Shown here in pieces: positions 34,012-54,226 of a DNA stretch of 64,000 nt (positions are counted from its first letter, which is position 1; every line of letters begins with the position of its first letter). The position numbers and the translations under genes are program-made. Source of the stretch: SAR86 cluster bacterium SAR86E (GTDB taxonomy: Bacteria > Pseudomonadota > Gammaproteobacteria > Magnimaribacterales > D2472); the NCBI GenBank assembly GCA_000307935.1, contig AMWX01000001.1, positions 244,041-308,040 on the forward strand. Direction: 5' to 3'. The notes below the pieces were generated by a model, which saw nothing but the letters and a program-made list of their open reading frames with translations, had not been told where the DNA came from and did no database searches.

Positions 34012-34016
34012 AAAGA

Positions 34017-34220
34017 TTATTTACTATGTGGTGGCAATTTAGCTTCTACAAACCATTCATGGATTTGCTTGGCTGGATTAAACTTTTTTAATCTTAATTT
34101 TTGGTTTTCAATAACTAGCTTCTTCGTCTTTACTGCCAAGTAATGATAGGTGTGACTATCTCTTGATTCACTTTCTGGAATTAAATAAACCTTAGTTTGT
34201 TTCTTTTTGCTATCTGCCAT
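34017..34220 (-). CDS. Small basic protein, divergent ribosomal protein L33-like
   Basis: 67 aa. KVYL..(x)..HTYHY..KTKK....KLRLKKFNPAKQIHEWFVEAKL parallels E. coli L33 (KIKL..[33 protein letters not shown]). It has no Cys pairs and is not next to rpmB. Confidence 0.45.
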   Translation of the reverse strand: MADSKKKQTKVYLIPESESRDSHTYHYLAVKTKKLVIENQKLRLKKFNPAKQIHEWFVEAKLPPHSK

Positions 34221-34335
34221 AATGTTGGGGATTATACCGAAATTAGATCAATTTCCCACGAATTATTTTAAATATATTATTAAAATTTTTTAGCTATCAA
34301 CCATCTATTTACACTAAAATGATTCGTCCTTAATA

Positions 34336-36522: not shown

Positions 36523-36530
36523 AGAATTAA

Positions 36531-38963: not shown

Positions 38964-38971
38964 AGTAGTCC

Positions 38972-39613: not shown

Positions 39614-39615
39614 TT

Positions 39616-40599: not shown

Positions 40600-42125
40600 A
40601 TAATTGCAGTGCTGTAGTTAAATGATGTTTCAGTTTTAAAGCTGATTCCTGATAAATCAATTGCTTTTTCCTGATCAGAATATCCCTGCAAAAGAGAAGT
40701 TAGATAGCAACCAAACCCTGAAACAAGAAATACTAAGCCCATTCTATGAATAAAAGGATATTCTGGAAAAATTATAAAAATGGAAAAGGACAGAACTAAA
40801 GACATGATCGCTGCAACCAACACACTTAGCGTTGTCGCCTTTTTCCAAAATAAAGCAACCAAGAAAATTACTAAAATTCCAGGAGTGAAAAATCCTGTAA
40901 AGTTTTGAATGTATTGAAATGCAGATTCCATACTGCCAAGAAGAGGTTGCGCACAAAGAACAGCAATAAATAAGGCAATCCAAGCGACATTTCTTCCCAC
41001 ATTAACTAACTTCTGCTCAGATGGCTCAGAATTAGAAAAGCTCCTGTAAATGTCCATAGTAAATATAGTGCTAACACTGTTAGTCATAGATGCTAAGGAG
41101 GATACTATTGCAGCCACCAAAGCAGCGAATGTAAGGCCTAATAAGCCATTAGGTAATAATGACATCATCATTGGGTATGCTTGATCAGATTTTTCTAGCG
41201 CTGGGTAAATAACAGCTGCACATATTCCAGGAAGAACAACTACAAATGGCATAAGCAATTTTAAATATGCTGCGAACATAACACCTTTCTGAGCTTCAGG
41301 AAGAGATTTTGCTCCGAGAGCTCTTTGAGTAATGTACTGATTGAATCCCCAATAAGCAAAGTGAGCAATCCACAATCCCCCAATTAAAACCCATACTCCA
41401 GGAAGATCTTTATATGCAGGGTTATCTTGAGATAAAATCATATCAAATTTCTCTGGCAGCAATTGATACACTTGGTTTAAACCACTAACAACACCTGCCC
41501 CATCAGATATTTGATTAAGGGCAATATAAGAAACGGATAACCCTCCGAAAATAAGAAGCACAACCTGAATAATGTCTGTCATTGCAACTGCCTTAAGCCC
41601 ACCCCAAAGAGAATATGCAAGTGAAAGCAATGCCAAAAGCACTAAACCAGTAAATAAATCTAAGCCAGTAAGTGAGTTAATTGCTAGCGATCCCAACCAA
41701 AGTACGCTGGTTAAATTAATAAAAATATAAACAGCTAACCAAAAAAATGATAAAACAAGACTTACCCTCTTATCAAAGCGCTGCTCCAAAAACTGAGGCA
41801 TGGTATAAATTTGTTTTTCAAGAAATAGTGGTAAAAAATACTTAGCCATAACAATTAAAGCAATGGCTGCAGTTAATTCATATGTAGCAATAGCCATTCC
41901 TACAACAAAACCTTGACCAGACATTCCAATGATTTGTTCAGCAGAAATATTTGCGGCTATTAGGGATGCGCCTATAGCCCACCAAGGAAGAGATCTTCCG
42001 GCTAAAAAATAATCCTCTGCTGTCTTTTCAACACCTTGCTGAGATCTTGAAACATATTGGGCAAGAAAGATTATCCCGACACAGTAAGAAGCAACAATAA
42101 AAATATCTAAATTGCTAAACAACAT
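40560..42125 (-). CDS. Sodium:solute symporter family protein (SGLT-like, probable Na+/glucose transporter)
   Basis: 521 aa, about 13-14 TM. The N-terminal ...DYFLAGRSLPWWAIGASLIAANISAEQIIGMSG is typical of SSF transporters. It is the first gene of the glk-pgl-GH3 operon. Confidence 0.85.
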   Translation of the reverse strand: MLFSNLDIFIVASYCVGIIFLAQYVSRSQQGVEKTAEDYFLAGRSLPWWAIGASLIAANISAEQIIGMSGQGFVVGMAIATYELTAAIALIVMAKYFLPLFLEKQIYTMPQFLEQRFDKRVSLVLSFFWLAVYIFINLTSVLWLGSLAINSLTGLDLFTGLVLLALLSLAYSLWGGLKAVAMTDIIQVVLLIFGGLSVSYIALNQISDGAGVVSGLNQVYQLLPEKFDMILSQDNPAYKDLPGVWVLIGGLWIAHFAYWGFNQYITQRALGAKSLPEAQKGVMFAAYLKLLMPFVVVLPGICAAVIYPALEKSDQAYPMMMSLLPNGLLGLTFAALVAAIVSSLASMTNSVSTIFTMDIYRSFSNSEPSEQKLVNVGRNVAWIALFIAVLCAQPLLGSMESAFQYIQNFTGFFTPGILVIFLVALFWKKATTLSVLVAAIMSLVLSFSIFIIFPEYPFIHRMGLVFLVSGFGCYLTSLLQGYSDQEKAIDLSGISFKTETSFNYSTAIICIILTITYFLLW

Positions 42126-42141
42126 AATTTCACCACCCCAT

Positions 42142-42155
42142 TGATATCGTTGTCA
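42142..42155. promoter_or_regulatory. LacI-family-type operator candidate TGATATCGTTGTCA
   Basis: An imperfect dyad around a central CG, 17 nt upstream of the symporter start and 57 nt upstream of the LacI-family gene. It is 13/14 identical to the site at 45295-45308. Confidence 0.55.
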
Positions 42156-42211
42156 AAGAACATACATTATCGTTAAAATAGTAAGATAAGGCAATAACAT
42201 TTAATAAAAGC

Positions 42212-43219
42212 ATGTCAGTTACAATAAAAGATGTTTCAAAGGACGCTTCAGTTTCAATAAAAACTGTTTCAAGAGTAATAAATAACGAGGCTAACGTAGC
42301 GGAATCAACTAAGAAAAAGGTACTTTTGTCTGTTAAAAAACTTGGTTTTAAACCAAACAAAAGTGCGCAAAGTTTAAGATCTAAAAAATCTTATATGTTG
42401 GCCCTTCTATATGACAACCCAAATAAATCATACTTGGCAGATGTTCAAAGCGGGATATTCAATGCATGCAAATCAACTGGCTATAACTTAGTGATTCAAG
42501 AGTGTGACTACAAATCAAGTGAGCTCAAAAATGATATTGTTCAATTTGTAGATGATTTTCGGATTGATGGGCTAATCATAACGCCCCCGCTTAGCGATAT
42601 GAGTGATTTTCTTAACCACCTAGATTTGTCTGAAATACAGTATTCTGTAATTGCGCCAAGCACAATGAATACAGAGTCACTATATGTATCATCTAATGAC
42701 TATGAAGCTGCATATACGCTTACCTCAGAAATTATAAAACATGGTCACACTGACATTGGGTTTATCAAGGGACACCCAAAACATTCAGCATCTAATCTAC
42801 GATTTAATGGTTATCTTGATGCCATAAAAAATCACAATATTGAAGTTAATGAAAATTGGATTAAACAAGGAAATTTTAGCTTTAAATCTGGTTTTGATGC
42901 CGGGGTTGAGATTTTTCATTCAGCTGCAATTCCAACAGCAATTTTTGCAAGCAATGACTCAATGGCAGCTGGAATTATGAAATCAGCGCAAATGAAAGGG
43001 TTAAAAATTCCAGAAGATATCTCTTTAGCTGGCTTTGATGATTCACCTATAGCCCATCAATTATGGCCTGCGCTTACAACAGTAAAACAACCAGTAGAAA
43101 AAATGTCTAGTCATGCAGCAAAAATTTTAATGGCTAAATTTGATGGACTGGCAGAAAAAAATAAATCTAAGGAATTTAAGTCAGAGCTAATTTTTAGAGA
43201 ATCTCTAAAGAATTTATAA
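42212..43219 (+). CDS. LacI/GalR-family transcriptional regulator
   Basis: N-terminal HTH VTIKDVSKDASVSIKTVSRVINNEANV followed by a periplasmic-binding-protein-like sugar-binding core. Confidence 0.9.
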   Translation: MSVTIKDVSKDASVSIKTVSRVINNEANVAESTKKKVLLSVKKLGFKPNKSAQSLRSKKSYMLALLYDNPNKSYLADVQSGIFNACKSTGYNLVIQECDYKSSELKNDIVQFVDDFRIDGLIITPPLSDMSDFLNHLDLSEIQYSVIAPSTMNTESLYVSSNDYEAAYTLTSEIIKHGHTDIGFIKGHPKHSASNLRFNGYLDAIKNHNIEVNENWIKQGNFSFKSGFDAGVEIFHSAAIPTAIFASNDSMAAGIMKSAQMKGLKIPEDISLAGFDDSPIAHQLWPALTTVKQPVEKMSSHAAKILMAKFDGLAEKNKSKEFKSELIFRESLKNL

Positions 43220-43840
43220 TCTAAATGATTCCATTATTCCAGCAACAACGAATTCAATAGCCAAAGCTCCTAATAAAATTCCAAAGATTTTTTGGACAAC
43301 AATAATTATTGTTGGGCCAACCCATTTTGAAAGACTAGCAGAAAGCCACATCGCAAATGCAACTAAAATAATAATAACTAAAATTGGTGTAAAGTTTATT
43401 AACATTTCAGTAGGATTGCTTTCATTGGTCTCGGCAATTAGCAATGCTGTTGTCATGGCTCCTGGCCCAGCTATTAAAGGTATTGCTAATGGAAATATAG
43501 CAAGGGACTGGATTGACTCATCATCTAATGCGACTTCAGCAGTATTTTGTCTTCTGGACTGGCGTTGCTCTAAAACCATCTGAAAAGCAATTGCTATAAG
43601 AAACAATCCTCCAATAATTTTAAATGAGCTCATGGATATTCCCATCGCATCTAATATTGCCGTTCCAAATAAATAAAATAGTGAAAGAATAACGAAAGAG
43701 ACCAAAGTTGCCTGAATGTATACCTTTCTTATATCACTTTTATTTAGTCCCTGCGTTAAGCTTGCAAAGATTGGAACAAGCGCAATCGGGTCAACGGCAA
43801 CAAATAGTAAAATAGTATTTTCCAGTAATTGATCAAACAT
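43214..43840 (-). CDS. MarC-family (UPF0056) integral membrane protein
   Basis: 208 aa, 6 TM, with the family-typical N-terminus LFVAVDPIALVPIF. Confidence 0.75.
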   Translation of the reverse strand: MFDQLLENTILLFVAVDPIALVPIFASLTQGLNKSDIRKVYIQATLVSFVILSLFYLFGTAILDAMGISMSSFKIIGGLFLIAIAFQMVLEQRQSRRQNTAEVALDDESIQSLAIFPLAIPLIAGPGAMTTALLIAETNESNPTEMLINFTPILVIIILVAFAMWLSASLSKWVGPTIIIVVQKIFGILLGALAIEFVVAGIMESFRL

Positions 43841-43842
43841 AT

Positions 43843-45273
43843 TTAGGTTGAAATTATTTGAATTGAATCTGTATGAGAAGCTGAATATACCCCAGCTATT
43901 AAAACAAACTTCAATGACTTTTTAGAGTTATTTGAAGATAATAAAATTGATTTAATATTTGAGATTGTTTTTGATTTATTGGTAATTGATTTGATGAAGT
44001 ATGGTTGTATTCCACCAATAATACTTAAGTGACTGTATGTATCTTGATTATTAGTAAAAGCATAAATTGGCATTCTAAAAGGCTTGGTATTGGAGACAAC
44101 ACTTGCTGTTTGGCCTGATCTGGTAATAATCACTATCGCATCAGCAGAAATTCCTTCAGCTAAATCACGGGCACTAATTGCTATGTTTTGCCAGTCAGAA
44201 TTATCTTGTAAAAATTTTTCATAACCTAAGGTTCTAAAATATTCAGTTTTAGCTGAAATCTTTTTTAACATTTTTACACATTGGACAGGGTACTTTCCAA
44301 CACTGGTTTCCCCTGATAGCATCACTGCATCAGCGCCCTCATAGATTGCATTCGCTACATCAGTTACCTCAGCCCTAGTTGGTGTTGGATTTTTAATCAT
44401 TGATTCAAGCAAATGAGTTGCAACTATTGACCTTCTCCCCCATTTTGCACTTGCGTACATAATTCTACGCTGAATATTTGGCAAGTCTGCGAGATCAGTT
44501 TCTATCCCCAAATCACCTCTTGCAACCATAACAATATCAGCTGCTTGAGTAATCTCATGGATATTATCAAGACCTTCTTGATTTTCAATTTTAGCAATAA
44601 TCTCTATAGAAGATTTTTTTCTTTTAAGGATTGTTCTCAAAGTATGGATATCATTTGCAGACCTAACAAACGATAATGCAATAAAGCTTAAATTATTTTT
44701 TATAGCAAAATTAATATCCTTTCGATCTTTCTTAGTGATAGATGGTAGATCTACCCTAACACCAGGAAGATTAACATGGCGTTTACTACCTAACTTGCCT
44801 CCATCTAAAACCTTGCATTTAAGATTTTCTTTATCCTTGGTTAATACTTTAAAATTTAACAAGCCATTATCAATGCTAATTTTTGATCCTTTTTCAACAT
44901 TCTTAATCAAGCCTTTATAATTAATCTTTATTGATGATGTTTCTACATCAACTTCATCCCTAATTGTTAGATTTACAATGTCGCCAGTTTTTAAATCAAT
45001 ATCAGATTGACTAACGCCAGTTCTTATCTCTGGGCCTTGAGTATCTAACAGAATGCCTATGGGGCCATAAATAGATGATTGATGCTTATTAAGCTTTTTA
45101 ATTGATGAAATAACATTTTCAGCATCCATATGAGATGCATGTGACATATTAATTCTGGCAACATTCATTCCGCATGCATGTAATTTTTTTAAAGTTTGAT
45201 AGTCACTCGTGCTAGGCCCAATTGTTGCAATAATTTTTGTTTTGGTGATTGTCATTTCGGCATCATACTCCAT
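43843..45273 (-). CDS. pyk: Pyruvate kinase
   Basis: TKIIATIGPS, MNVARINMSH, MVARGDLGIE and the overall length. Confidence 0.9.
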   Translation of the reverse strand: MEYDAEMTITKTKIIATIGPSTSDYQTLKKLHACGMNVARINMSHASHMDAENVISSIKKLNKHQSSIYGPIGILLDTQGPEIRTGVSQSDIDLKTGDIVNLTIRDEVDVETSSIKINYKGLIKNVEKGSKISIDNGLLNFKVLTKDKENLKCKVLDGGKLGSKRHVNLPGVRVDLPSITKKDRKDINFAIKNNLSFIALSFVRSANDIHTLRTILKRKKSSIEIIAKIENQEGLDNIHEITQAADIVMVARGDLGIETDLADLPNIQRRIMYASAKWGRRSIVATHLLESMIKNPTPTRAEVTDVANAIYEGADAVMLSGETSVGKYPVQCVKMLKKISAKTEYFRTLGYEKFLQDNSDWQNIAISARDLAEGISADAIVIITRSGQTASVVSNTKPFRMPIYAFTNNQDTYSHLSIIGGIQPYFIKSITNKSKTISNIKSILLSSNNSKKSLKFVLIAGVYSASHTDSIQIIST

Positions 45274-45294
45274 TAGAGATTAAAGTGAATATAT

Positions 45295-45308
45295 TGACAT
45301 CGTTGTCA
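45295..45308. promoter_or_regulatory. LacI-family-type operator candidate TGACATCGTTGTCA
   Basis: 6 of 7 dyad positions pair around the central CG. It lies in the 69-bp divergent region between pyk and gap-zwf-edd-eda. Confidence 0.55.
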
Positions 45309-45342
45309 TTTATTAGTATATTAATATTTAATCGCAAATCAA

Positions 45343-46434
45343 TTGGGGATTAGGATATTGATAAGTATTGCTATTAATGGGTTCGGCAGGATTGGAAAAA
45401 ATATTGCAAGATTGCTTTTACAAGACCCATCTCTCTCTTCACAAATAAATCTTGTAGCTATCAATGATTTAGGTTCAATAGAATCAAGCGCTCATTTGCT
45501 TATGTATGATTCAGTGCATGGTAAAACATTCAACAGAATTCAACACACCGAAGATACATTGATCGTAGATGAGCATGAAATTTTCTACTCCTCCTTAAAA
45601 GATCCATCTGCTCTCCCCTGGGGTAAATATAATATTGATATCGTTCTAGAATGCTCCGGTGCTTTTACATCCAAAGATGCAGCAATTGAACACATTAATG
45701 CTGGTGCAAAAAAAGTGATTGTATCTGCTCCAGTAGTAAATGCAGATAAAACAGTTGTCTTTGGTGTAAATCAACATGAATTATTGCAGGATGATTTAGT
45801 TATATCTAACGGCTCATGTACAACTAATTGTCTAGCCCCAATCGCAAAAGTCTTAAATGATTCCTTTGGAATCAATAGCGGGATCATCAATACAATTCAT
45901 GCCTACACAAATGATCAAAACCTACTGGATATGAGTCATGATGACTTATACAGAGCACGTGCAACAAACTCATCTATCATTCCTACTAAAACAGGTGCAG
46001 CCAAAGCTATTGGGCTTGTTCTACCTGAGCTATCTGGAAAACTTACTGGTATTGCAACAAGAGTTCCAGTTCAAAATGTTTCCATGCTTGATTTTACATT
46101 TACATTAGATCGGAGTGCAGAGCTAGAGGAAATTAAATCTTTGTTTGAGGCAGCTGCAAGCAGCAATCTTAAAAATATATTAACTATAAATACCAAGCCT
46201 CTAGTAAGCATTGATTTTAATCAAAATTCTGCTTCTGCAATTTTAGATTTTAATTTCATAAATAAAATTGGAAATCAATTTAAGTTGATTGCTTGGTACG
46301 ACAATGAATGGGCATTTTCAGCAAGAATGCTAGATTTAACTTTATACTTATATCAACTTTCTTTAGTTGAAATAAGCCAAATTAATACTGCTTCATTGTT
46401 TGATGGCAAGCCAAAAATAAGCCTTTCGCAATAA
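45343..46434 (+). CDS. gap: Glyceraldehyde-3-phosphate dehydrogenase
   Basis: INGFGRIGK and the active site SNGSCTTNCLAP. The start may instead be the in-frame TTG at 45358, which lies behind a GGGGAT/AGGA Shine-Dalgarno-like stretch. Confidence 0.9.
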   Translation: MGIRILISIAINGFGRIGKNIARLLLQDPSLSSQINLVAINDLGSIESSAHLLMYDSVHGKTFNRIQHTEDTLIVDEHEIFYSSLKDPSALPWGKYNIDIVLECSGAFTSKDAAIEHINAGAKKVIVSAPVVNADKTVVFGVNQHELLQDDLVISNGSCTTNCLAPIAKVLNDSFGINSGIINTIHAYTNDQNLLDMSHDDLYRARATNSSIIPTKTGAAKAIGLVLPELSGKLTGIATRVPVQNVSMLDFTFTLDRSAELEEIKSLFEAAASSNLKNILTINTKPLVSIDFNQNSASAILDFNFINKIGNQFKLIAWYDNEWAFSARMLDLTLYLYQLSLVEISQINTASLFDGKPKISLSQ

Positions 46435-46437
46435 AAT

Positions 46438-47880
46438 ATGAATATCTTTATCTTTGGCGGGACCGGTGATTTAGCAAGCAGGAAACTTCTTCCTGCATTA
46501 TACAGGCACTTTAAAGCACACAGACTTAGCGCTCATGCAAAAATAGTGAGCATTGGATCAAGAGCAATTAACTCATCTGAGTATCAAATATTGGTAAGAG
46601 AGAATTTAGAGCACCATTTAAATGAAAGTGAGTTTGATGAAAGTGTATGTTCAGAATTTTTAAAACTAATTTCATTTTTAAAAATTGATTTTAATAAGGC
46701 TGATACGTTCAAACTATTAGCCGACAATGCATTAGATGGAAGTAGAAATATCTACTATTTAGCTGTTTCACCTATTTTTTATAAAATCATTGTAGATAAT
46801 CTAAATTTACAGAAACTTATTTTTTCATCTTCATCAATTATTGTTGAAAAGCCTATTGGCAGAGATCACTCTTCATCAGTTGAGATTAATCATGCATTAG
46901 CTCAGCATTTCAATGAGCATCAAATCTTTAGGATTGATCATTATCTTGGTAAAGAGGCTGTTCAAAACTTATTGGCTTTAAGATTTGGCAACATAATTTT
47001 TGAAAAAATATGGTCAAATATAGCAATTGATCATATCCAGATCACTGTCTCTGAAACACTTGGGCTTGAAAATAGAGGGTCCTATTATGATGAAACAGGT
47101 GCCATTAAAGATATGTTGCAAAATCATTTGCTACAAATTTTATGCTTAGTTGCCATGGAACCGCCAACTAATATTAATTCAGAATCAATTAGAGATGAGA
47201 AGCTAAAAGTTCTGCGCTCTCTGAGGCCTTTAGAGGGCAATAAAAATGATCAGCAAGTAGTTGTTGGTCAATATAAAGATGGAGCTATTAACGCACAACC
47301 TAAAAAGGCATATGTTGAGGAAGATGGGGTCAACCCGAATAGCATGACGGAAACATTTGTTGCATTAAAATTATGGATCGATAACTGGAGATGGTCGGGA
47401 GTTCCTTTCTTCTTAAGAACGGGGAAAAGGATGTCTGAAAAAAAATCTGAAATCGTCGTTCAATTTAAATCTGTACCTCACAATATTTTTGATTCAAAAA
47501 TTATGCAAAAAGATAATCAATTAATTATTAGGTTGCAGCCTGAGGAGAGTATCAAACTAAAAATTATGATAAAAAAACCTTCTGCGTCAGGATTTTATCT
47601 TCAAGAACTTCCGTTAGATCTTTTGTTTGAGGATTACTATAAAGAAGATCATCTTGATGCATATGAAAGGCTATTAATGGATATTATTGAAAATAAACCA
47701 TCTCTTTTCATGAGAAGAGATGAGGTAGAAGAGGCATGGGTATATATTGATCAATTAATAACCTCCATTCATTCATCAGATATAAATATCTCAAAATATA
47801 ATGCTGGTAGCTGGGGGCCATCCAGTGCAGATCTACTAATAGCAGGACATGAAGCTAAATGGAATAATGAGGAAGACTAA
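46438..47880 (+). CDS. zwf: Glucose-6-phosphate 1-dehydrogenase
   Basis: FGGTGDLA, EKPIGRD and the signature RIDHYLGKE. Confidence 0.92.
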   Translation: MNIFIFGGTGDLASRKLLPALYRHFKAHRLSAHAKIVSIGSRAINSSEYQILVRENLEHHLNESEFDESVCSEFLKLISFLKIDFNKADTFKLLADNALDGSRNIYYLAVSPIFYKIIVDNLNLQKLIFSSSSIIVEKPIGRDHSSSVEINHALAQHFNEHQIFRIDHYLGKEAVQNLLALRFGNIIFEKIWSNIAIDHIQITVSETLGLENRGSYYDETGAIKDMLQNHLLQILCLVAMEPPTNINSESIRDEKLKVLRSLRPLEGNKNDQQVVVGQYKDGAINAQPKKAYVEEDGVNPNSMTETFVALKLWIDNWRWSGVPFFLRTGKRMSEKKSEIVVQFKSVPHNIFDSKIMQKDNQLIIRLQPEESIKLKIMIKKPSASGFYLQELPLDLLFEDYYKEDHLDAYERLLMDIIENKPSLFMRRDEVEEAWVYIDQLITSIHSSDINISKYNAGSWGPSSADLLIAGHEAKWNNEED

Positions 47881-49664
47881 TGTTAACTCAGATTAATGAA
47901 GTAAAAAAAAGGATTGATGCTCGAAGTCAAAAAACAAGAACAGAGTATCTAAAAAAAATTGAAATATGGAAAACAAAGTCTCCAAACAGAAACAATCTTG
48001 GCTGCTCAAATCTTGCACATACTTTTGCTGCTTGTGGACAAAAAGGTAAATCTGAGAATTTAAATATAAAAAAATTTATAGGGATAATTACTGCATACAA
48101 TGACATGCTTTCAGCTCATGCTCCTTTTGAAGCATATCCCAAAAAATTAAAAAAAGAAGCTGAAAAACTTAATCTTCATGTCCAAGTTGCGGGTGGGGTT
48201 CCTGCCATGTGTGATGGAATTACGCAGGGAGAACCTGGTATGGAGTTATCACTTTTTAGTAGAGACACCATTGCCCTGTCAACAGCAGTTGGTTTATCAC
48301 ACAATGTTTTTGATTCGGCAATATGCATGGGAACATGCGATAAGATAGTTCCGGGATTGCTAATGGGTGCTCTTCAATTTGGTCATTTGCCAGTAATTTT
48401 TATTCCTGGTGGCCCTATGTCTACTGGAATTTCTAATGAAGCGAAATCTGAATCAAGAAAATCATTTGCTGCTGGAGAAATTTCAAAGATTGATCTGCTA
48501 GAAATTGAGCAACAAGCCTATCATTCGCCAGGAACTTGTACTTTCTATGGAACAGCTAATACAAATCAATTAATTGCTGAAGCCATGGGTTTTCAGTTAC
48601 CCGGAAGCGCATTCACACCCTCAGATTCACCCTTAAGGGAATTATTGAATGCTGAAAGTCTGAAATCTTTAATGAGACTAATGGACTCTGAAATTGGTAT
48701 AGGTGAGATGCTAGACATTAATAATTGGCTCAATGCAATGATTGTTTTGCTTGCAAGCGGAGGCTCAACCAACCTAGTGATTCACTTGATCGCCATGGCT
48801 AGATGTGCCGGCTATATAATTTCCCCAGAAGATTTTAATAATCTTTCTTCGGTTATTCCGTTGCTCTGCCAAGTTTATCCAAATGGAAAAGCAGATGTAA
48901 ATGAATTCCATGCTGAGGGTGGTATTGCAAGACTATTAACAAATCTTTTAGATGCGGACTTAATTTACGAGAATATTCAAACCGTTGCAGGTTTAGGTTT
49001 GCAGAAGTATACAAAAATACCAGCAATCAATGATTCTAATGAAAATAATCTTGATTGGAGAGAGGTAGATTTTGAATTGATAACTGCCACAAGTATAAGA
49101 ACAGCTAAAAATCCTTTTAAAAATAATGGAGGAATTAAATTTATCGGTGGAGATATAGCCGAGGGAGTGATAAAGGTATCTGCTCTGGAGAAAGAAAATG
49201 AAATTATTACTGGTCCAGCCAGAGTTTTTACAAGCCAAGAAGATGTGCTAAATGCATTTGAATTAAATGAATTGAATGCTGATCTCATAATCGTATTATT
49301 AGGTCAAAGCCCAACTTCAAATGGAATGCCTGAACTCCATAAACTGACATCCCCCATCAATGTTTTGCAGAGCAAGGGTTATAAAATAGCCTTGGTGACC
49401 GATGGAAGAATGTCAGGTGCATCTGGATCATTCCCCGCTCTTATTCATGCTGTTAGTATTAATAATAATTTATATAAGATTCAGGATAATGATCAACTCA
49501 CGTTGGATTTAAAAAAGGCAATATTTTCAATAGAAAACTTCGACTCTGAGCGAGAACCAATTCACATTGAATCCAATGGCTTTGGCCTTGGAAGAGAGTT
49601 ATTTAGTATTTTCAGATCTAATGTCGGGTCTGTAAGTAATGGGGCTTCTATATTTTATGAATAA
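47880..49664 (+). CDS. edd: Phosphogluconate dehydratase (IlvD/Edd family)
   Basis: 594 aa with IlvD/Edd-family motifs (CDGITQG, CDKIVPG). It sits between zwf and eda. Confidence 0.9.
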   Translation: MLTQINEVKKRIDARSQKTRTEYLKKIEIWKTKSPNRNNLGCSNLAHTFAACGQKGKSENLNIKKFIGIITAYNDMLSAHAPFEAYPKKLKKEAEKLNLHVQVAGGVPAMCDGITQGEPGMELSLFSRDTIALSTAVGLSHNVFDSAICMGTCDKIVPGLLMGALQFGHLPVIFIPGGPMSTGISNEAKSESRKSFAAGEISKIDLLEIEQQAYHSPGTCTFYGTANTNQLIAEAMGFQLPGSAFTPSDSPLRELLNAESLKSLMRLMDSEIGIGEMLDINNWLNAMIVLLASGGSTNLVIHLIAMARCAGYIISPEDFNNLSSVIPLLCQVYPNGKADVNEFHAEGGIARLLTNLLDADLIYENIQTVAGLGLQKYTKIPAINDSNENNLDWREVDFELITATSIRTAKNPFKNNGGIKFIGGDIAEGVIKVSALEKENEIITGPARVFTSQEDVLNAFELNELNADLIIVLLGQSPTSNGMPELHKLTSPINVLQSKGYKIALVTDGRMSGASGSFPALIHAVSINNNLYKIQDNDQLTLDLKKAIFSIENFDSEREPIHIESNGFGLGRELFSIFRSNVGSVSNGASIFYE

Positions 49665-50250
49665 CTTTATACCAAAATTCCTACCCACCCTTACAGTCTC
49701 ATCTGTAACAGAAGCAAATATAATTTGCAAAATCCTCAATGCAACGGATATAAATTTTATTGAAATTACACTGAGATCCTCAGTTTCTTATGAAGCAATA
49801 GAAATAATTGCACAAAACAAAGATATAAATTTAGGCTTGGGAACCGTTCTTAATATTAACCAATTAAAAAAAATAGATCATATAAAACCCAAATTTATTG
49901 TTTCGCCTGGATTTAGCGAGAAGATTGCTAGTTATGCAGTTAAACGTGGTATTGATTACATACCTGGTGTTGAATCAGCAACTGAAATCATGAAAGCCTA
50001 TGATCATGGTTATAAACTATTAAAATTTTTCCCATCTGAGCTTTCAGGTGGAATCAAAAAATTACAGTCGTTGTATGAAATTTTTCCTGAGATTAAATTC
50101 TTATGTACAGGTGGAATTAACCTATCTAACTATGTTGATTACACCAAAATTAAAAATGTAGGCTCATTAGGAGGGTCATTTGTACTGCCAAAAAATTTAG
50201 TCGATGAACAAAAAATAGAACAGGCCATTAACCACCTTAATAAATTATAG
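49657..50250 (+). CDS. eda: KDPG / KHG aldolase
   Basis: FIEITLRS and the Schiff-base lysine context LKFFPSE. The ATG at 49657 is preferred over 49639 (8-nt overlap with edd). Confidence 0.85.
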   Translation: MNNFIPKFLPTLTVSSVTEANIICKILNATDINFIEITLRSSVSYEAIEIIAQNKDINLGLGTVLNINQLKKIDHIKPKFIVSPGFSEKIASYAVKRGIDYIPGVESATEIMKAYDHGYKLLKFFPSELSGGIKKLQSLYEIFPEIKFLCTGGINLSNYVDYTKIKNVGSLGGSFVLPKNLVDEQKIEQAINHLNKL

Positions 50251-50266
50251 GCAAAAAAAAATAGGC

Positions 50267-50486
50267 AAAAAAAAACAGAGCTAGGCTCTGTCTTTTCAGT
50301 TCGAGATTGGAAGGGGTCTAAAGTGAGAATCTCTTTAGCTCCTTGAAGGCTTTCTCTTTCCTTCTTGGTGGGTTACTAAGCTCTTTTTTATCGTCGACTC
50401 TTAGTATCGCTTTCGCCCTTCGTCTCTACCTTCTCTTTCTCTCTTACTCCCGTCTGCAGTTGTTTGTAAGTCGGTCCGAGTTGGTC
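50267..50486 (-). ncRNA. Candidate orphan small RNA (about 220 nt, purine-rich), family not recognised
   Basis: It is bounded by a near-consensus sigma70 promoter and a strong terminator on the minus strand. It has no ATG and no ORF. Its composition is clearly less AT-rich than the flanks and is strongly A/G-biased. Local hairpins and repeated AAGAG motifs are present. Confidence 0.5.
50275..50291. terminator. Bidirectional hairpin terminator, much stronger on the minus strand
   Basis: ACAGAGC-tag-GCTCTGT. On the minus strand it is followed by nine T; on the plus strand by CTTTT. Confidence 0.75.
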
Positions 50487-50491
50487 TATTA

Positions 50492-50519
50492 AATATACGC
50501 CTTTAGGAAATAGAGTCAA
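50492..50519 (-). promoter_or_regulatory. Sigma70-type promoter for the orphan transcript
   Basis: On the minus strand: TTGACT (50519-50514), a 16-nt spacer, TATATT (50497-50492). An A/T-rich tract lies just upstream. Confidence 0.55.
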
Positions 50520-50542
50520 CAGCTTTTATTAAAAAAGTTTAA

Positions 50543-52588
50543 TTAATTTTCTATATTCCAATTCTTTTGATAAAAATCTGCTAAAACATAAAAAGCTTCT
50601 TTTTTATTACCATTTTCATCCATCAAACCCTTTCTATTGTAAAAGTCTTGAATACCTGAAAGCGGTCTCAACATTGCTCTAAAATCTTTAAGAATCCATG
50701 GACTAATTCCTCTAATTTGCGGGTTATTTGCAAGCATCTCTAGTTGATATTTATACAATTTTGCTTGGTAATTCTCAGACCAAATTTTTTCAGTAGTATT
50801 TCCATATTGAGCTCCAGCACCAAATTCGGAAATATGTATGGGTTTTTCATAAGCAGAGCTTAATTTTATATTTGGCATTATTTCAAACATCAGCTTCCTC
50901 AGAGTTGCCTCTGAAATTTTTATTTGTTCAGAAAAAAATGTAACGTAGTACCAACCAAAATATTCATTGTATGAAATTAGATCTATGTTCTCGCCTAATG
51001 GATCATCAATCGAAATTGAAAAGTTCATTTTTGTATCAAAGGGGATCTTTGCTTGATTTAAAATTGACTCAAAAATAATTCTTTCTTGATCAGTTACCCA
51101 CATAGATCTTGCTCCCTGAAGTGCTAAGGTGATAATGAGCGATTGAAATTGCTCTTCACTGCCGGAAAGTAGTGCTGCTGTAGTCAAACGCGAGTTATCA
51201 TTAGTATGAATTTCAGCTAACAAGGATTTTAGAAAATCCATCCGATCAGATGAGAATGGAGTTTCATTCGCAACAGACCAGACGACTACGGATGCCCTAT
51301 TCTGATCTCGTTGAACCAGTCTAGTAATTTGATTTTTTGCAATCTGAAGTGTCTCAGGATTCTTCCAATCTATATTCCAGTAAACTGGGACCTCTTCCCA
51401 AAGCATTAACCCCATCTTATCTGCAAGCTTTGCTAATTGCCGAGTATATGGATAATGCGCAGCTCGAATAAAATTACTATTTAAATCTTTTGCTGCGGTA
51501 AGCAGTTTTTTGAAATGTTCCTCAGAAAAAGCAGGGCCAGGTATTCCAATAGGTTCAGAATGCATGGAGATACCACTAAATTTAATCTCCGCATCGTTAA
51601 GAAATATCTTTTTACCCTCAGTTTTTATAGAACGAAATCCTATGTCATCACTAATTTTTTCCGTATCAGAGATGATCTCAACCTTGTAAAGCTTGGGATT
51701 AGCGGGGGACCATAGTTCAGGAGAAATATTAAGATATTCCTCAATTTCACCTTCAGCATTCGTTTGATATTCTTTTTGAAATTTAAGCTCTGGAATCTTA
51801 ATAGTAACCTTGCGGTCACTTAATTTTTTACTCATTTGCAACTTAAAGGAAGCTTGAGAATGATTATCTTTATCAAGTTGTATGTATGCATTTCTGATGA
51901 AATCGCTTGGTGTCTCTAATATGTATACATCACCAACTATGCCTCCCCATGGCCACCAATCTGTTTTTTGAGTTGGAACTGACGATTGGTCTAACGAATT
52001 GTCAGTTTGGATTATTAGTGTATTTTCACCATCTGTAAGATAACTTGAAATATCAAAATTAAATGGTACGTATCCCCCCTTAAATTCGCCAACTATAGAA
52101 CCATTAAGAAATATTTTGGTAGTGAAGTTACTGCCCTCTATATAAAGATGGGTTAATGTATCTGTTTTAGGTGTGTGTATGAACTTTTTGTAAAGCCATA
52201 CAGGGCCCCTATAGAAAAGCAATCTTTCGTCTTGCGCATTCCAGGCTCCCGGAATTTTAATTTTCTCTGCAGCTTCAAAATTATATTCTATTAACTCCAT
52301 ACCAGTTTTTTGAATCTTATTTTTTGGAAAGCCACCAAAAAAAGAAGATTCAGGTAGCCCATTGTTCATTGGGTCAATAATGTAAGTCCATTCACCATTC
52401 AGTGATATTATTTGCCTTGAATCTATCCAACCAATTAAGTTTTCTGGAGAGGGGTAGTTAGGAGGCTTACGATCAAAAAAACTATTTGCATCTGATGTTT
52501 CTTCAGAAAATATAGTAAATGAAGCAAATAAAGCGAGGGTTAAAAGAGCTTTCGTGGCATTCGTTTTTTTAAGCTTAATCAAGAACAA
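50543..52588 (-). CDS. Glycoside hydrolase family 2 protein (beta-glucuronidase/beta-galactosidase-like), secreted
   Basis: Signal peptide. GH2 TIM-barrel region NFIRAAHYPY and the acid/base motif WSVANE. Confidence 0.8.
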   Translation of the reverse strand: MFLIKLKKTNATKALLTLALFASFTIFSEETSDANSFFDRKPPNYPSPENLIGWIDSRQIISLNGEWTYIIDPMNNGLPESSFFGGFPKNKIQKTGMELIEYNFEAAEKIKIPGAWNAQDERLLFYRGPVWLYKKFIHTPKTDTLTHLYIEGSNFTTKIFLNGSIVGEFKGGYVPFNFDISSYLTDGENTLIIQTDNSLDQSSVPTQKTDWWPWGGIVGDVYILETPSDFIRNAYIQLDKDNHSQASFKLQMSKKLSDRKVTIKIPELKFQKEYQTNAEGEIEEYLNISPELWSPANPKLYKVEIISDTEKISDDIGFRSIKTEGKKIFLNDAEIKFSGISMHSEPIGIPGPAFSEEHFKKLLTAAKDLNSNFIRAAHYPYTRQLAKLADKMGLMLWEEVPVYWNIDWKNPETLQIAKNQITRLVQRDQNRASVVVWSVANETPFSSDRMDFLKSLLAEIHTNDNSRLTTAALLSGSEEQFQSLIITLALQGARSMWVTDQERIIFESILNQAKIPFDTKMNFSISIDDPLGENIDLISYNEYFGWYYVTFFSEQIKISEATLRKLMFEIMPNIKLSSAYEKPIHISEFGAGAQYGNTTEKIWSENYQAKLYKYQLEMLANNPQIRGISPWILKDFRAMLRPLSGIQDFYNRKGLMDENGNKKEAFYVLADFYQKNWNIEN

Positions 52589-53936
52589 ATTTACTAACTA
52601 TTTGATAAAGGTCTTCTGTGCCTTGGATATAACTAGAGACTTTGACTCTTTCATTATTTCCATGAACACCAGAAAAATCTTCTGGATTAAATATAATTGG
52701 GTTGAATCCATAACTATCTATACCGAGCTCTCTAGTAAAATGACTGTCTGTAAAGCCGGTGCTGACTGCAGGAGCAACTCTTGAGCCAGGATGCATTCTT
52801 GAAGTGATAGATTTAATATGTTGAAAGAAATCTGATTTAGTCGATGATACGGCTGGTGCAAATGCTAATACCAGATCAACCGTGACGCCTGCTGGTTCAA
52901 TTAAATTTTTAAAATCTTCTATAAATTCCTCCGCTGATCTGTCTGGAAGCATTCTGCAATCAACTTCTGCTATAGCAACTGGTGGCACAACATTAATTTT
53001 TTGAGAGCCTTGAAGCATTGTCAACGAACATGTATCTCTTGTTAAAGCATGATAAGTAGGTGAGAAAGCTTGAAGCTGCTCTAAAAAACCATCTTCATTA
53101 ATGGCATTTTTTATATCTGAAAAAGATTGTGCATTTTTGCCGGTCATATTCAAAGCCAAGCTTTTAAAATAAGCATCTACTGCAGGAATAATTCTTGCTG
53201 GAAATGGATTCTCCCGAACTAAATTCAAGGCATGGATAATTCTTGTGACTGAGCTTGTAGCCCTCGGAGATGAGCCATGTCCTGGTTCATCTGTTGCAGT
53301 TAATCTTAACCACACAGGTACTTTTTGCGTAACCTCAATAGAAAATACTGTTTCGTCACCGATCCTGACACCGCTTCCGCCCTCATTGATAACAAAACCA
53401 GCACCTTCGAAAACTTCTGGATGATTTTTAATCATCCAACCAGCACCATACAGACCACCTGCCTCTTCATCTGCAGTTGCCAAAAAAACCAAGTCTCTGT
53501 TTAGTTTTTTATTTTCTCTATGTAATTTTAAAAATGAAATGAGGTGAGAAATACCAGCGCCCTTCATATCGATTACGCCCCTTCCATAAAGATAGCCATC
53601 TTTTATTTCGGCTACCATTGGATCGGTATCCCAATAATCTTTTGATGCTGGAACAACATCCGTGTGCTGAAGTAGTATCAAGGCTGGTTCATTTCCACCC
53701 TCAATTCTAGCCCAAATATTTCCCCGACCAGGTGCACTTTCTGCAGTAGAAAATTCTACTCCCTCTTGTTCAAATATTTTGGCATAGAAATCTACTGCTC
53801 TTGACTCATTGCCTGGAGGATTAATTGTATTCACTGCAACAAAGTCTGAAAGCAAGTCAACCGGATCAAGTGAGTCAGCTAAAATTGATGTACTAGAAAG
53901 AATTAATAAAGTTGCAAGTAATTTTCTTTTTTTCAT
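52575..53936 (-). CDS. M20-family metallopeptidase (ArgE/DapE/CPG2-like), secreted
   Basis: Signal peptide. Motifs LLQHTDVVP, GRGVIDMKG and ADEEAGG. Confidence 0.8.
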   Translation of the reverse strand: MKKRKLLATLLILSSTSILADSLDPVDLLSDFVAVNTINPPGNESRAVDFYAKIFEQEGVEFSTAESAPGRGNIWARIEGGNEPALILLQHTDVVPASKDYWDTDPMVAEIKDGYLYGRGVIDMKGAGISHLISFLKLHRENKKLNRDLVFLATADEEAGGLYGAGWMIKNHPEVFEGAGFVINEGGSGVRIGDETVFSIEVTQKVPVWLRLTATDEPGHGSSPRATSSVTRIIHALNLVRENPFPARIIPAVDAYFKSLALNMTGKNAQSFSDIKNAINEDGFLEQLQAFSPTYHALTRDTCSLTMLQGSQKINVVPPVAIAEVDCRMLPDRSAEEFIEDFKNLIEPAGVTVDLVLAFAPAVSSTKSDFFQHIKSITSRMHPGSRVAPAVSTGFTDSHFTRELGIDSYGFNPIIFNPEDFSGVHGNNERVKVSSYIQGTEDLYQIVSKFVLD

Positions 53937-54226
53937 TGGTTGATGCCTTCAACTAACACAACATGGCGATTAGAAGAATTCGACGAGTACTGAAGTGCTC
54001 GCTGATACTCATCTGAGTCATAACAAATTTTTGCTTCATTCATTGAATTAAATTCTACTAAAACTGTTCTTTCATAGGGCCCACCTTCTAGTTCAATTTG
54101 ATCTCCACCACGAACCAAAAAGGTACCACCATGTTTTTGAATTGCTGGACCGGCTAACTTAATATATTCCTCATACTCAACAGTATTGTGCACATGACAT
54201 CTTGTAATCCAGTATGCCTTCATCAA
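53933..54226 (-). CDS. DUF1330 domain protein
   Basis: 97 aa. [13 protein letters not shown]...[24 protein letters not shown]...VLVEF fits my memory of DUF1330. Confidence 0.7.

Follow-up and report, generated by a model that had tools for sequence, protein, structure and literature searches.

The unit transcribed from the minus strand at positions 50485-50267 of the window (the whole 64,000-nucleotide stretch of SAR86 DNA that was analysed) is a free-standing gene for IMES-1, an RNA of a known family. Two of its hairpin loops carry self-complementary hexamers whose covariation among relatives is possibly new, and this comparative pattern suggests that IMES-1 sticks to its own copies via these two loops. 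Our preferred reading, to which we assign a probability of roughly 60%, is that the RNA made from this free-standing gene kisses itself and serves as a scaffold or sponge.

An IMES-1 gene between eda and GH2

The features of the locus are as follows.

49639-50250, plus strand: eda (KDPG aldolase; PF01081, E = 6.4e-48), convergent neighbour, outside the RNA
50543-52588, minus strand: GH2 glycoside hydrolase (PF02836/02837/00703), on the same strand as the RNA and upstream of it
50520-50540, minus strand: A/T-rich tract AAACUUUUUUAAUAAAAGCUG upstream of the -35 box, resembling an UP element
50514-50519, minus strand: -35 box TTGACT (TTGACN at the same place in 129 of 162 distinct upstream regions)
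50492-50497, minus strand: -10 box TATATT, 16 nt past the -35 box and ending 5-7 nt ahead of the A at 50485
50267-50485, minus strand: predicted IMES-1 transcript of ~219 nt, with the 5' end taken from promoter geometry and the 3' end from the terminator
50291-50480, minus strand: Rfam match to IMES-1, model positions 1-191 of 191, not truncated
50267-50291, minus strand: intrinsic terminator, hairpin ACAGAGC-CUA-GCUCUGU (50291-50275) plus U-run

An Infernal cmscan against Rfam, suggested as a check by an earlier sequence-only reading of this DNA, returned IMES-1 (RF02034) at 50480-50291 on the minus strand with 197.9 bits (gathering score 81, E = 6.5e-45). The alignment of the window copy to the model contains just four non-canonical pairs, and the consensus architecture of the family is present, in which P1 encloses a hairpin whose large loop is conserved and a three-hairpin multistem domain comes next. 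That reading had described an orphan RNA fitting no known family and had itself named a confident Rfam hit as the end of any novelty; the full-length match is such a hit, and the SAR86 host and carbon-metabolism neighbourhood of IMES-1, in print since 2012 (PMC3358033), undo the novelty further. Dupont et al. 2012 (PMC3358033) placed an abundant metatranscriptome ncRNA in the SAR86 carbon-assimilation region, whose gene content is variable, and inferred "rapidly responsive RNA-based regulation". Rfam models of 6S (RF00013 or relatives) and CsrB/Rsm gave no match at E <= 1 within 50100-50700. A match to AgrB (RF02891) was rejected because its 30.3 bits are below the gathering score of 40, and it reflects the shared terminator shape only. 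The IMES-1 motif and its exceptional transcript abundance reportedly go back to work by Weinberg et al. and Shi et al. in 2009. The very high abundance of IMES-1 in metatranscriptomes is taken here from Dupont et al. 2012 (PMC3358033) and from what these 2009 studies reportedly found.

The stop codons of the convergent eda and GH2 genes are 292 bp apart, with the unit of ~219 nt inside the gap. As the sequence-only reading observed, such a gap is unusual, since the eight other convergent pairs in the window (ORFs of at least 100 aa) are separated by -8 to +50 bp. The direction of the composition shift that it described also holds, the IMES-1 match at 50291-50480 having 44.7% G+C compared to 35.3% in the window (top 2.2% of 190-nt windows), while "overwhelmingly" C/T was too strong a term for a plus strand with 65.8% C+T, itself in the top 0.25% of 190-nt windows. 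The flanks in the window are 76-78% identical to SAR86 SAG loci, and the flanking eda protein is found on marine/seawater metagenome contigs only.

The promoter and the A/T tract lie exactly where they had been read, and they are conserved in more than 100 copies from other genomes. TTGACT-16-TATATT matches 10 of the 12 sigma-70 consensus positions, and every one of the 129 copies fitting the pattern TTGACN-16-TANNNT, among the 162 distinct upstream regions, has a spacer of exactly 16 nt. Upstream of the promoter, a T-run and an A-run are conserved across IMES-1 copies; the consensus of the 129 aligned upstream regions is ATTAAATTTTTTTTAAAAAAAGTG followed by TTGACA, with the T-run ~90% conserved. 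We take this A/T tract to resemble the E. coli UP-element consensus. At the other end of the unit, the terminator stem and U-run are invariant across copies. Nine consecutive U are indeed present (50275-50267), although the stem already ends on the first of them, leaving eight rather than nine to follow the hairpin. Read on the plus strand, the hairpin at 50291-50275 probably terminates eda as well.

An nhmmer profile match spans 50483-50267, and the conserved promoter and terminator support what had been proposed, an independent minus-strand unit with predicted ends near 50485 (5') and 50267 (3'). Where IMES-1 copies lie in tandem elsewhere, the spacing just leaves room for a separate promoter and terminator per copy. 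In the window, the GH2 stop codon lies 3 nt ahead of the UP-like tract and no terminator occurs between GH2 and the RNA promoter region, so some read-through transcription from GH2 into the unit is possible. The RNA of the window copy contains no ATG, as had been noted, and no ORF is conserved across copies. A hidden small ORF was considered and rejected: the longest ORF has a median length of 20 aa, an ATG occurs in 51 of 144 copies, and no start follows the AAGGAG element.

Fold and self-complementary loop hexamers

The structural elements of the RNA, with the two hexamers, are listed here from the 5' end.

50443-50470, minus strand: hairpin 1, stem CUUAC/GUAAG, apical loop closed by C50462-G50451
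50454-50459, minus strand: loop-1 hexamer CUGCAG, self-complementary, predicted symmetric kissing site
50422-50444, minus strand: purine-rich region AGAGAGAAAGAGAAGGUAGAGAC, comprising the last two bases of the hairpin-1 3' strand, the P1 3' strand (50433-50436) and the junction to P2
50309-50421, minus strand: multistem domain with hairpins A, B and C, closed by P2 (GAAGG 50421-50417 with CCUUC 50314-50310)
50372-50408, minus strand: hairpin A, 9-bp stem GAUACUAAG/CUUAGUAAC and 19-nt loop AGUCGACGAUAAAAAAGAG
50393-50398, minus strand: loop-2 hexamer GUCGAC in hairpin A, self-complementary, predicted symmetric kissing site
50345-50364, minus strand: hairpin B, stem GAAGG/CCUUC, invariant loop AAGAGA
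50339-50344, minus strand: near-invariant junction AAGGAG, resembling a Shine-Dalgarno sequence (invariant columns C141, A143, G144, G145 and G147)
50318-50338, minus strand: hairpin C, stem CUAAAG/CUUUAG, loop with conserved UCUC

The helices covary strongly across 144 distinct IMES-1 copies, which form the comparison set and provide the alignment of relatives that had been proposed for this locus. In this set, 91.8% of helix cells are paired, compared to 74.8% in shuffles, and the helix covariation score is 0.443, compared to 0.155 when shuffled, a value reached by 0 of 500 shuffles, with slid registers giving at most 0.10; kinship among the copies inflates these shuffle-based statistics. 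Double changes occur in 32 of 46 pairs. The same helices are recovered by an unbiased MI scan and by RNAalifold, and the MFE fold of the window copy gives the Rfam helices with a z-score of -2.5. All three stems drawn in the sequence-only reading are Rfam consensus helices, namely C (50338-50318), A (50408-50400/50380-50372) and B (50364-50345), although it overlooked hairpin 1, P1 and the helix closing the multistem domain.

The stem of hairpin 1 (helix 2) is 98.8% paired with double changes in all three pairs, and its loop is closed by CG in 140 sequences and by UA in the other 4. P2 (helix 5) switches between GC (112) and AU (32) at pair 76-186, and between AU (67), UA (29) and GU (12) at pair 74-188. 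The hairpin A stem (helix 6) shows double changes in eight of nine pairs, has 95.6% of its cells paired and is among the top MI pairs. Hairpin B (helix 8) is 99.4% paired, with double changes in four of five pairs, and hairpin C (helices 9 and 10) is 94-98% paired, with double changes in four pairs. Looking for extra helices or pseudoknots, the MI scan shows known helices and clade markers only. Two additional RNAalifold pairings, one between AGAG and the terminator CUCU and the other between the AGG of AAGGAG and CCU, were rejected because they lack compensatory changes, the latter also competing with a covarying Rfam pair. A GGUG/CACC junction pairing was dropped as well, being broken by a U-to-C change in the window without compensation.

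The single-stranded regions are rich in purine motifs. Four single-stranded sites hold conserved AGAG/AAGAGA elements, and the AGAG at columns 48/50 and 66 of the alignment is kept in 78-99% of copies. The window sequence has no start codon at a usable distance downstream of AAGGAG. AAGAG occurs six times in the unit, in line with the earlier count of at least six, compared to 2.46 +/- 1.31 in dinucleotide-preserving shuffles (P = 0.016), a weak enrichment; AGAGA, GAGA and AGAG are no commoner than composition predicts. The sequence-only reading had speculated that the purine repeats would suit an Hfq-type or other protein-titrating RNA, an idea neither strengthened nor refuted here. That AAGAG is barely above composition and that only about two GGA motifs are conserved are points against a scaffold or sponge role.

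All 144 distinct copies have a self-complementary hexamer in both loops. Loop 1 reads CUGCAG in 110 copies, CUCGAG in 30 and UUGCAA in 4, so that its pairing is 100%, with double changes from GC to CG or back and between C-G and U-A that amount to two evolutionary switches only. Loop 2 is far more diverse, with eight variants (GUCGAC 55, GUCGAU 35, GCUAGC 25, GUUGAC 8, GUCGGC 6, GUGCAU 5, GUUAAC 5 and GGUACC 5), all self-complementary, and at least 15 parsimony changes, or approximately 15 independent switches. These switch counts come from a neighbor-joining tree of the 220-nt RNA and are noisy, and the loop-2 palindromes GCUAGC and GGUACC are revealed by a 3-column register shift, chosen by eye, in 30 sequences of a divergent subfamily.

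Among the 864 hexamer pair cells, 810 are Watson-Crick, 54 are G.U, and none are A.C or anything else; the presence of 54 G.U and 0 A.C places the constraint on the RNA strand, not on DNA. The hexamer covariation score is 0.315, compared to 0.154 when shuffled, with 0 of 500 shuffles reaching it and slid registers giving at most 0.08. Only 3 of the 18 possible single-step variants of GUCGAC are seen, those that keep pairing through G.U, and all 21 within-genome paralog pairs share identical hexamers. The computed self-duplex energies range from -5.6 to -11.2 kcal/mol. By sequence comparison, the loop-1 hexamer has no complementarity to the loop-2 hexamer. Adjacent loop nucleotides cannot pair within one molecule, which argues for intermolecular pairing; Kretsch et al. 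2025 (PMC12286853) reasoned likewise about the kissing loops that cryo-EM has verified in OLE and GOLLD.

We propose that hairpin 1 and hairpin A would each present their 6-nt self-complementary sequence in the apical loop, and that each of these loops would pair with its counterpart on another IMES-1 molecule in a symmetric kissing loop. Such pairing would give a homodimer or, since there are two independent kissing sites, possibly a ring or chain. We give about even odds that IMES-1 would prove to be a small (~200 nt), hyper-abundant, self-assembling RNA forming a defined homodimer, ring or filament. The weakest steps of the proposal concern what follows assembly: the assembled RNA might display its invariant purine-rich single strands (AGAGAGAA, AAGAGA, CCACCAA and AAGGAG), it might serve as an abundant sponge or scaffold that takes up some protein or ribosomal partner, and this role might be linked somehow to the surrounding sugar and pyruvate metabolism genes.

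Genomic distribution and competing explanations

IMES-1 is found in ~100 genome contigs of SAR86 (Magnimaribacterales), a group of marine Gammaproteobacteria. Among 99 matches in the genome collection, 98 are real, almost all on SAR86 contigs, and the SAR86 carriers include SAG, MAG and isolate contigs. Thirteen further copies score 121-206 bits against RF02034. One of them, at 145.5 bits, lies at about 437.70-437.88 kb in the closed genome (CP151794.1) of HIMB1674, which was the first SAR86 isolate to be cultured. A match in Mailhella (L031), which has no profile match, was dropped as a chance pattern match. A phage origin was also rejected, the viral collection having given only four matches, all at the ends of short contigs.

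Many genomes have at least two copies, which lie in at least six recurrent, different neighbourhoods (IDO-like, pyruvate kinase, ETF-QO/DUF1285, GH2, OAD-beta and PDH-E1). Upstream of the RNA lies GH2 in 13 other copies and an IDO-like gene in 26, the upstream gene varying and often being divergent, while pyruvate kinase lies 40-90 nt downstream on the same strand in 21 other copies. More broadly, IMES-1 occurs among zwf-edd-eda, GH2, pyruvate kinase, glucokinase/LacI, PDH-E1 and OAD-beta genes, and near its copies no single neighbour gene and no partner protein is conserved, the latter being a further point against a scaffold or sponge role. Copies less than 10 kb apart are always direct repeats, sometimes identical, and such repeats bracket pyruvate kinase and glucokinase genes; assemblies break at the IMES-1 copies. 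Given these varied chromosomal sites and the presence of two or more copies per genome, IMES-1 is free-standing and acts in trans, not on a neighbouring gene. As had been recognized, no downstream gene is available here for a riboswitch, eda being convergent; across copies, the downstream genes are of mixed function and orientation and lie beyond the terminator of the RNA, unlike the targets of a cis-acting leader.

If the unit instead belonged to the GH2 transcript, as a 3' UTR or read-through tail, or were a leader acting in cis on a downstream gene, the GH2 stop codon 3 nt before the UP-like tract, the absence of a terminator between them and the 21 copies with pyruvate kinase closely downstream would be readily explained. 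This is very improbable in our view, as the convergent eda leaves nothing to lead in the window, the gene upstream differs between copies (often divergent, as with the 26 IDO-like genes), and the promoter and terminator, 9-U run included, are kept in every one of these contexts. The arrangement of the copies themselves raises another explanation, in which the palindromes act at the DNA level, as operators for dimeric proteins or as recombination sites, in a repeated 220-bp element that shuffles carbon-metabolism cassettes. Direct repetition of near and sometimes identical copies, the bracketed pyruvate kinase and glucokinase genes, the assembly breaks at the copies, and the varying gene content of the region (Dupont et al. 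2012, PMC3358033) are consistent with this. We nevertheless find it scarcely credible, because a constraint on DNA would be strand-symmetric, contrary to the 54 G.U and 0 A.C, operators conserve sequence and do not covary, every helix covaries as RNA does, G.U included, and the promoter and terminator are conserved. Recombination between IMES-1 copies may well happen, as a side effect.

Two further explanations accept an RNA that acts in trans. In one of them, IMES-1 is a conventional base-pairing sRNA, perhaps Hfq-dependent, that rapidly tunes mRNAs of sugar and pyruvate metabolism, and the palindromes are incidental. The location of the copies among genes of this metabolism points in that direction, as do the terminator, whose 9-U run makes a long U-tail, and the (A-R-N)n-like purine tract AAGAGAGAAAGAGAAGG, an (ARN)5-like stretch. 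A U-tail terminator and an (A-R-N)n tract are Hfq-binding features in E. coli. RNA-based regulation was also what Dupont et al. 2012 (PMC3358033) proposed. We nevertheless judge this explanation unlikely. No single neighbour is conserved, the best conserved single strands are purine-rich and would pair with pyrimidine tracts instead of ribosome-binding sites, and a 190-nt covarying fold, multiple copies and a near-consensus promoter with an UP-like tract are more what one expects of a structural or stoichiometric RNA than of a catalytic regulator; the covariation of the palindromes is left without explanation.

A protein sponge that works as a monomer, like 6S or CsrB/RsmZ, titrating RNA polymerase, CsrA or another RNA-binding protein via recurring purine motifs and without self-association, would agree with the high abundance (Dupont et al. 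2012, PMC3358033), the strong and apparently constitutive promoter, the AGAG/AAGAGA elements in four single-stranded places and the two conserved GGA motifs. Nevertheless, the RNA shows no 6S-like rod with a central bubble, and the 6S and CsrB/Rsm models remain unmatched at E <= 1. Its roughly two conserved GGA motifs lie outside hairpin loops, AAGAG is weakly and other purine k-mers are not enriched, and two hexamers that stay self-complementary through ~17 switches are left unexplained, which makes this explanation quite improbable. The self-associating scaffold or sponge remains our preferred reading.

Significance and comparison with known systems

Another copy of IMES-1 is in itself ordinary. 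The question of what this RNA does dates from 2009, and two results ease the attack on it, a cultured host and a testable kissing-loop hypothesis; with IMES-1 above the Rfam threshold in HIMB1674, experiments in a real host are now possible. The window copy shares with RF02034 its helices, marine relatives, SAR86 host and carbon-metabolism context, with no difference at the family level. What is added to the knowledge of IMES-1 is the conservation of promoter and terminator, the statistics on copy number and neighbourhoods, the presence in HIMB1674 and the covarying loop hexamers. Self-assembly of IMES-1 appears to be without earlier description: neither covarying palindromic loops nor IMES-1 oligomers are described in the literature searched.

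IMES-1 resembles 6S and CsrB/RsmZ in being a highly abundant, stand-alone, trans-acting ncRNA with repeated short motifs. Nevertheless, its fold is a hairpin plus a multistem domain, whereas 6S has a rod and bubble, and compared to CsrB/RsmY/RsmZ, which have more than four GGA in or between hairpins, it has about two conserved GGA, in AAGGNAGAG and CAAGGAGC, both junctional; the GGA of the hairpin B stem is not conserved across copies. In the phi29 pRNA ring, two loops per monomer pair intermolecularly into a closed oligomer. Those loops are complementary to each other (heterotypic), whereas those of IMES-1 are self-complementary, and pRNA, unlike IMES-1, comes from a phage and works within a packaging motor.

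A closer likeness at the level of the loop is found in the HIV-1 DIS, which also has a 6-nt self-complementary sequence flanked by unpaired purines; loop 1 of IMES-1 is C-AA-CUGCAG-AC-G. The DIS loop is AA-N6-A, and its natural variants exchange palindromes, as in IMES-1. The DIS serves the packaging of a viral genome and offers one site, in a 9-nt loop, whereas the cellular ncRNA IMES-1 has one in a 10-nt loop and another in a 19-nt loop.

OLE, ROOL and GOLLD are natural RNA-only homo-oligomers with symmetric kissing loops, in which a loop pairs with its counterpart on another chain (Kretsch et al. 2025, PMC12286853). For OLE and GOLLD, part of the support comes from neighbouring positions in a loop that covary, passing from one palindrome to another (GGCC/GAUC/AGCU and GC/CG; Kretsch et al. 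2025, PMC12286853). IMES-1 shows this palindrome-switching pattern at two loops, its oligomers being a prediction. If the prediction is true, RNA-only assemblies would not be confined to rare giant "ornate" RNAs and would include a small, mass-produced marine RNA; the RNA-only quaternary class of OLE, ROOL and GOLLD would gain a member that ranks among the most abundant transcripts in the surface ocean. IMES-1 has no sequence or fold homology to these three RNAs and differs from them in host (SAR86) and ecology. It is also smaller, with ~190-220 nt compared to roughly 600-800 nt or more, its palindromes are 6 nt long, and its loop 2 is far more variable than the loops of OLE, ROOL and GOLLD.

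An IMES-1 gene between eda and GH2

The predicted minus-strand transcript at 50485-50267 is a member of IMES-1 (RF02034), a family reportedly first described by Weinberg et al. and by Shi et al., both in 2009. In the Rfam 15 scan, IMES-1 matched 50480-50291 (minus strand) with 197.9 bits (gathering score 81, E = 6.5e-45) over the entire model (positions 1-191 of 191), and was the sole non-tRNA match in the whole window. A weak, sub-threshold match to AgrB is explained by the terminator. The sequence-only reading had taken the unit for a new RNA, a claim it would itself have given up on a confident Rfam hit and which is withdrawn here: the finding is a rediscovery of a known family in an already published host.

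Features of the locus
49639-50250, plus strand: eda (KDPG aldolase), final gene of the zwf-edd-eda cluster
50291-50267, minus strand: terminator
50308-50292, minus strand: 3' tail
50398-50393, minus strand: loop 2 hexamer
50459-50454, minus strand: loop 1 hexamer
50519-50492, minus strand: promoter (TTGACT, 16-nt spacer, TATATT)
50543-52588, minus strand: GH2 (family-2 glycoside hydrolase), convergent with eda

The other observations made from the raw sequence proved largely correct. The convergent gap is indeed 292 bp, which is unusual in the window, where the remaining eight convergent gene pairs lie -8 to +50 bp apart. The increase in G+C was also recovered (44.7% vs 35.3% for the window), but the description of the plus strand as overwhelmingly C/T was too strong, since it is 65.8% pyrimidine, placing it in the top 0.25% of the window's 190-nt windows. 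Promoter and terminator, about 220 nt apart, are both present as proposed, except that the nine U after the ACAGAGC-CUA-GCUCUGU hairpin include the last stem base.

Of 162 distinct upstream regions, 129 keep the promoter (TTGACN, exactly 16 nt, TANNNT), whose end lies 5-7 nt ahead of the A at 50485. The -35 box is preceded by a T-run and then an A-run, both conserved (consensus ATTAAATTTTTTTTAAAAAAAGTG and then TTGACA), an arrangement that resembles the UP element found at very strong promoters of E. coli. In our alignment of 144 distinct full-length sequences, pooled from genomes and metagenomes, the terminator stem and U-run are invariant; read on the plus strand, this terminator probably also ends eda. 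The hairpin (50275-50291) is nearly symmetric: the minus strand has a 9-U run, the plus strand CTTTTC. Its stem can be extended to 13 bp through the A-tract and U-tract.

The three stems drawn from sequence correspond to hairpins C, A and B of the family, and the helices covary strongly across the copies, with a score of 0.443 vs 0.155 for the Rfam structure (reached by 0 of 500 column shuffles), standard pairs in 91.8% of cells vs 74.8% in shuffles, both-sided changes in 32 of 46 pairs, and scores of 0.10 or less in shifted registers. An unbiased mutual-information scan and RNAalifold recovered the same helices independently and gave no convincing helix beyond the Rfam structure in the 144 copies. 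A conserved ORF is absent. IMES-1 is a gene in its own right, its promoter looks strong, and its product is structured and non-coding.

Linking the multistem domain to the terminator is a single-stranded 3' tail (AAUCUCGAACUGAAAAG) in which UCGA is near-invariant; some lineages have AAUCGAUU here, a palindrome of 8 nt. This UCGA could be a third self-complementary site, a 4-nt palindrome being weak evidence. Elsewhere in the window, tRNA genes at 2929-3015 and 21439-21510 (both minus strand) explain two other long intergenic gaps, a 97-aa ORF with a TTG start (53933-54226, minus strand) occupies the gap 53937-54222, and further long gaps occur at 5516-6037 (522 bp, divergent) and 34012-34335.

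Hosts, neighbours and copy number

One genome per GTDB species was scanned with a 20-base pattern from invariant positions outside the loops. A profile search confirmed 98 of the 99 stretches returned as IMES-1, the exception being a chance match in a Mailhella contig. Almost all confirmed stretches come from SAR86 single-cell, metagenome-assembled or complete genomes, and to that extent IMES-1 is specific to SAR86. Marine metagenome contigs are 99% identical to the window, and its flanking genes are 76-78% identical to SAR86 single-cell loci. We infer that IMES-1 is the RNA whose link to SAR86 was already published by Dupont et al. 2012 (PMC3358033), who assigned an abundant metatranscriptome ncRNA to the variable carbon-assimilation region; on their SAR86A scaffold it adjoins pyruvate kinase (locus L025).

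HIMB1674 (Magnimaribacter mokuoloeensis), the first member of SAR86 brought into culture (PMC11582366), also carries a copy in its closed genome (145.5 bits with Rfam's model), so that IMES-1 is no longer limited to uncultivated organisms. The isolate paper makes no mention of ncRNAs (PMC11582366).

IMES-1 copy of HIMB1674
5697-5880 of L055 (the stretch from this genome), minus strand; CP151794.1 about 437,697-437,880: divergent subfamily (30 of the 144 aligned copies), loop hexamers CUCGAG and GCUAGC

Four loci with full-scoring copies, at 187-195 bits (L012, L036, L086, L105), lie on contigs labelled Pseudohongiella, Neomarinimicrobiota, Woeseiaceae and 'Proteobacteria UBA3413', with GC of 43% in L012 and 40% in L105, above typical SAR86 loci (mean 34%); either the records are mislabelled or the bins contaminated, or the RNA has hosts slightly beyond SAR86. 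IMES-1 occurred on just four 'viral' contigs (L108-L111; IMG/VR samples 3300016733, 3300016735, 3300016740, 3300016766), all of them short (2-9 kb) and with the RNA at their extreme end; a misclassified assembly of cellular or transcript origin is a likelier source than phage.

Genes recurring next to IMES-1
IDO-like gene: upstream, divergent; 26 copies
DUF1285: downstream, convergent; 22 copies
Pyruvate kinase: downstream, same strand; 21 copies
ETF-ubiquinone oxidoreductase: upstream, same strand; 20 copies
GH2: upstream, same strand; 13 copies, window included
Oxaloacetate decarboxylase beta: downstream, convergent; 11 copies
PDH E1: downstream; 6 copies
Sodium:solute symporter: downstream; 6 copies

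Neighbours vary from copy to copy, and many genomes hold two or more copies, in tandem, 1-10 kb apart or hundreds of kb apart, the tandem copies being separated by about 85-100 nt, space for one promoter each. Variable neighbours and multiple copies exclude a cis-regulatory role and point to a free-standing gene acting in trans. Among the neighbours, central carbon metabolism genes seem to recur, fitting Dupont's description. The window copy itself lies in a sugar-utilisation region (34336-52588: CBM9-domain protein, GH3, LacI-family regulator, MarC-family protein, zwf-edd-eda, IMES-1, GH2), followed by an M20 peptidase and malate synthase G.

Copies at most 10 kb apart are direct repeats in 12 of 12 pairs, several identical in sequence, and lie on either side of pyruvate kinase, ROK-glucokinase and LacI-type genes. 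The 279-kb SAG contig ARRL01000002 has IMES-1 at both start and end, and metagenome contigs break off within the RNA gene. Being repeats of 220 bp, the copies could promote cassette gain and loss in SAR86's variable carbon-assimilation region (loci concerned in these observations: L027, L040, L090, L094, L061, L069, L075; locus pairs L030/L043, L032/L047, L073/L103, L048/L104, L042/L089; L016/L054; L003-L008).

Self-complementary loop hexamers

Each of the two largest hairpin loops contains a hexamer that varies by lineage and is always self-complementary.

Loop hexamers in 144 copies
Loop 1 (apical loop of hairpin 1): CUGCAG 110, CUCGAG 30, UUGCAA 4
Loop 2 (19-nt loop of hairpin A), Watson-Crick self-pairing: GUCGAC 55, GCUAGC 25, GUUAAC 5, GGUACC 5
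Loop 2, self-pairing needs G•U: GUCGAU 35, GUUGAC 8, GUCGGC 6, GUGCAU 5

Loop 1, a 10-nt loop (C-AA-hexamer-AC-G) closed by C-G, or by U-A in four sequences, self-pairs in 100% of copies and has switched only twice in evolution, through an exchange of the two adjacent nucleotides at the centre (GC to CG) and a change of the outer pair from C-G to U-A. Loop 2, with eight variants, has undergone at least about 15 state changes on a noisy tree built without the hexamer columns, where GUCGGC, GUGCAU, GUUGAC and GUCGAU each occur in more than one clade. Three of the 18 possible single substitutions of GUCGAC retain self-pairing via G•U wobble, and the single-step variants observed are exactly these three. 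By chance, 64 of 4096 hexamers would be Watson-Crick palindromes, or 216 with G•U allowed, and as neither loop overlaps the search pattern, the sample was not selected for self-complementarity.

In the two loops together, 810 of the 864 pair cells are Watson-Crick and the other 54 are G•U, with no A·C or any further combination. A constraint on double-stranded DNA would treat the strands alike and produce A·C and G•U at equal frequency; the constraint therefore acts at the RNA level. The six hexamer pairs alone score 0.315 vs 0.154 (0 of 500 shuffles; 0.08 or less in shifted registers), shuffle statistics that are inflated by relatedness among copies; aligning GCUAGC or GGUACC in the 30 divergent-subfamily sequences required a 3-column shift, set by eye.

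Proposed self-association and alternatives

No hexamer can pair with itself inside a single chain, and neither of the two is complementary to the other; the simplest reading is therefore that each pairs with the same loop of a second IMES-1 molecule. On this comparative evidence, we give a probability of roughly 0.65 to self-association via two symmetric kissing loops. Two such independent homotypic sites could yield a closed dimer, ring or chain. All 21 within-genome paralog pairs share the same hexamers, so paralogous transcripts could co-assemble. A more tentative, rather doubtful extension is that the assembly presents invariant purine-rich single strands (AGAGAGAA, AAGAGA, CCACCAA, AAGGAG) to some partner, either a protein or the ribosome, and so serves as a scaffold or sponge of high abundance.

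An Hfq-type base-pairing regulator of carbon metabolism, as Dupont suggested, is possible, but it leaves the fold, the gene dosage and the palindromes unexplained. A monomeric sponge resembling 6S or CsrB would be expected to show the defining features of those RNAs, which are absent from IMES-1. Palindromes serving as a DNA-level element are contradicted by the strand asymmetry (54 to 0, G•U vs A·C). Reading the unit as a 3' UTR or leader is likewise contradicted, both by the conserved promoter and terminator and by neighbours that vary across copies and are convergent in the window.

We found no report of the covarying self-complementary loops or of the cultured-isolate copy in the accessible literature, 2009 supplement excluded, and as far as could be checked both are apparently undescribed. 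Together, they turn a question open since 2009 into simple experiments. Symmetric kissing loops have been seen by cryo-EM in OLE and GOLLD, where adjacent loop nucleotides switching between palindromes were taken as evolutionary support (Kretsch et al. 2025, PMC12286853). The covariation argument is the same for the IMES-1 loops, whereas the oligomers observed for OLE and GOLLD are predicted for IMES-1.
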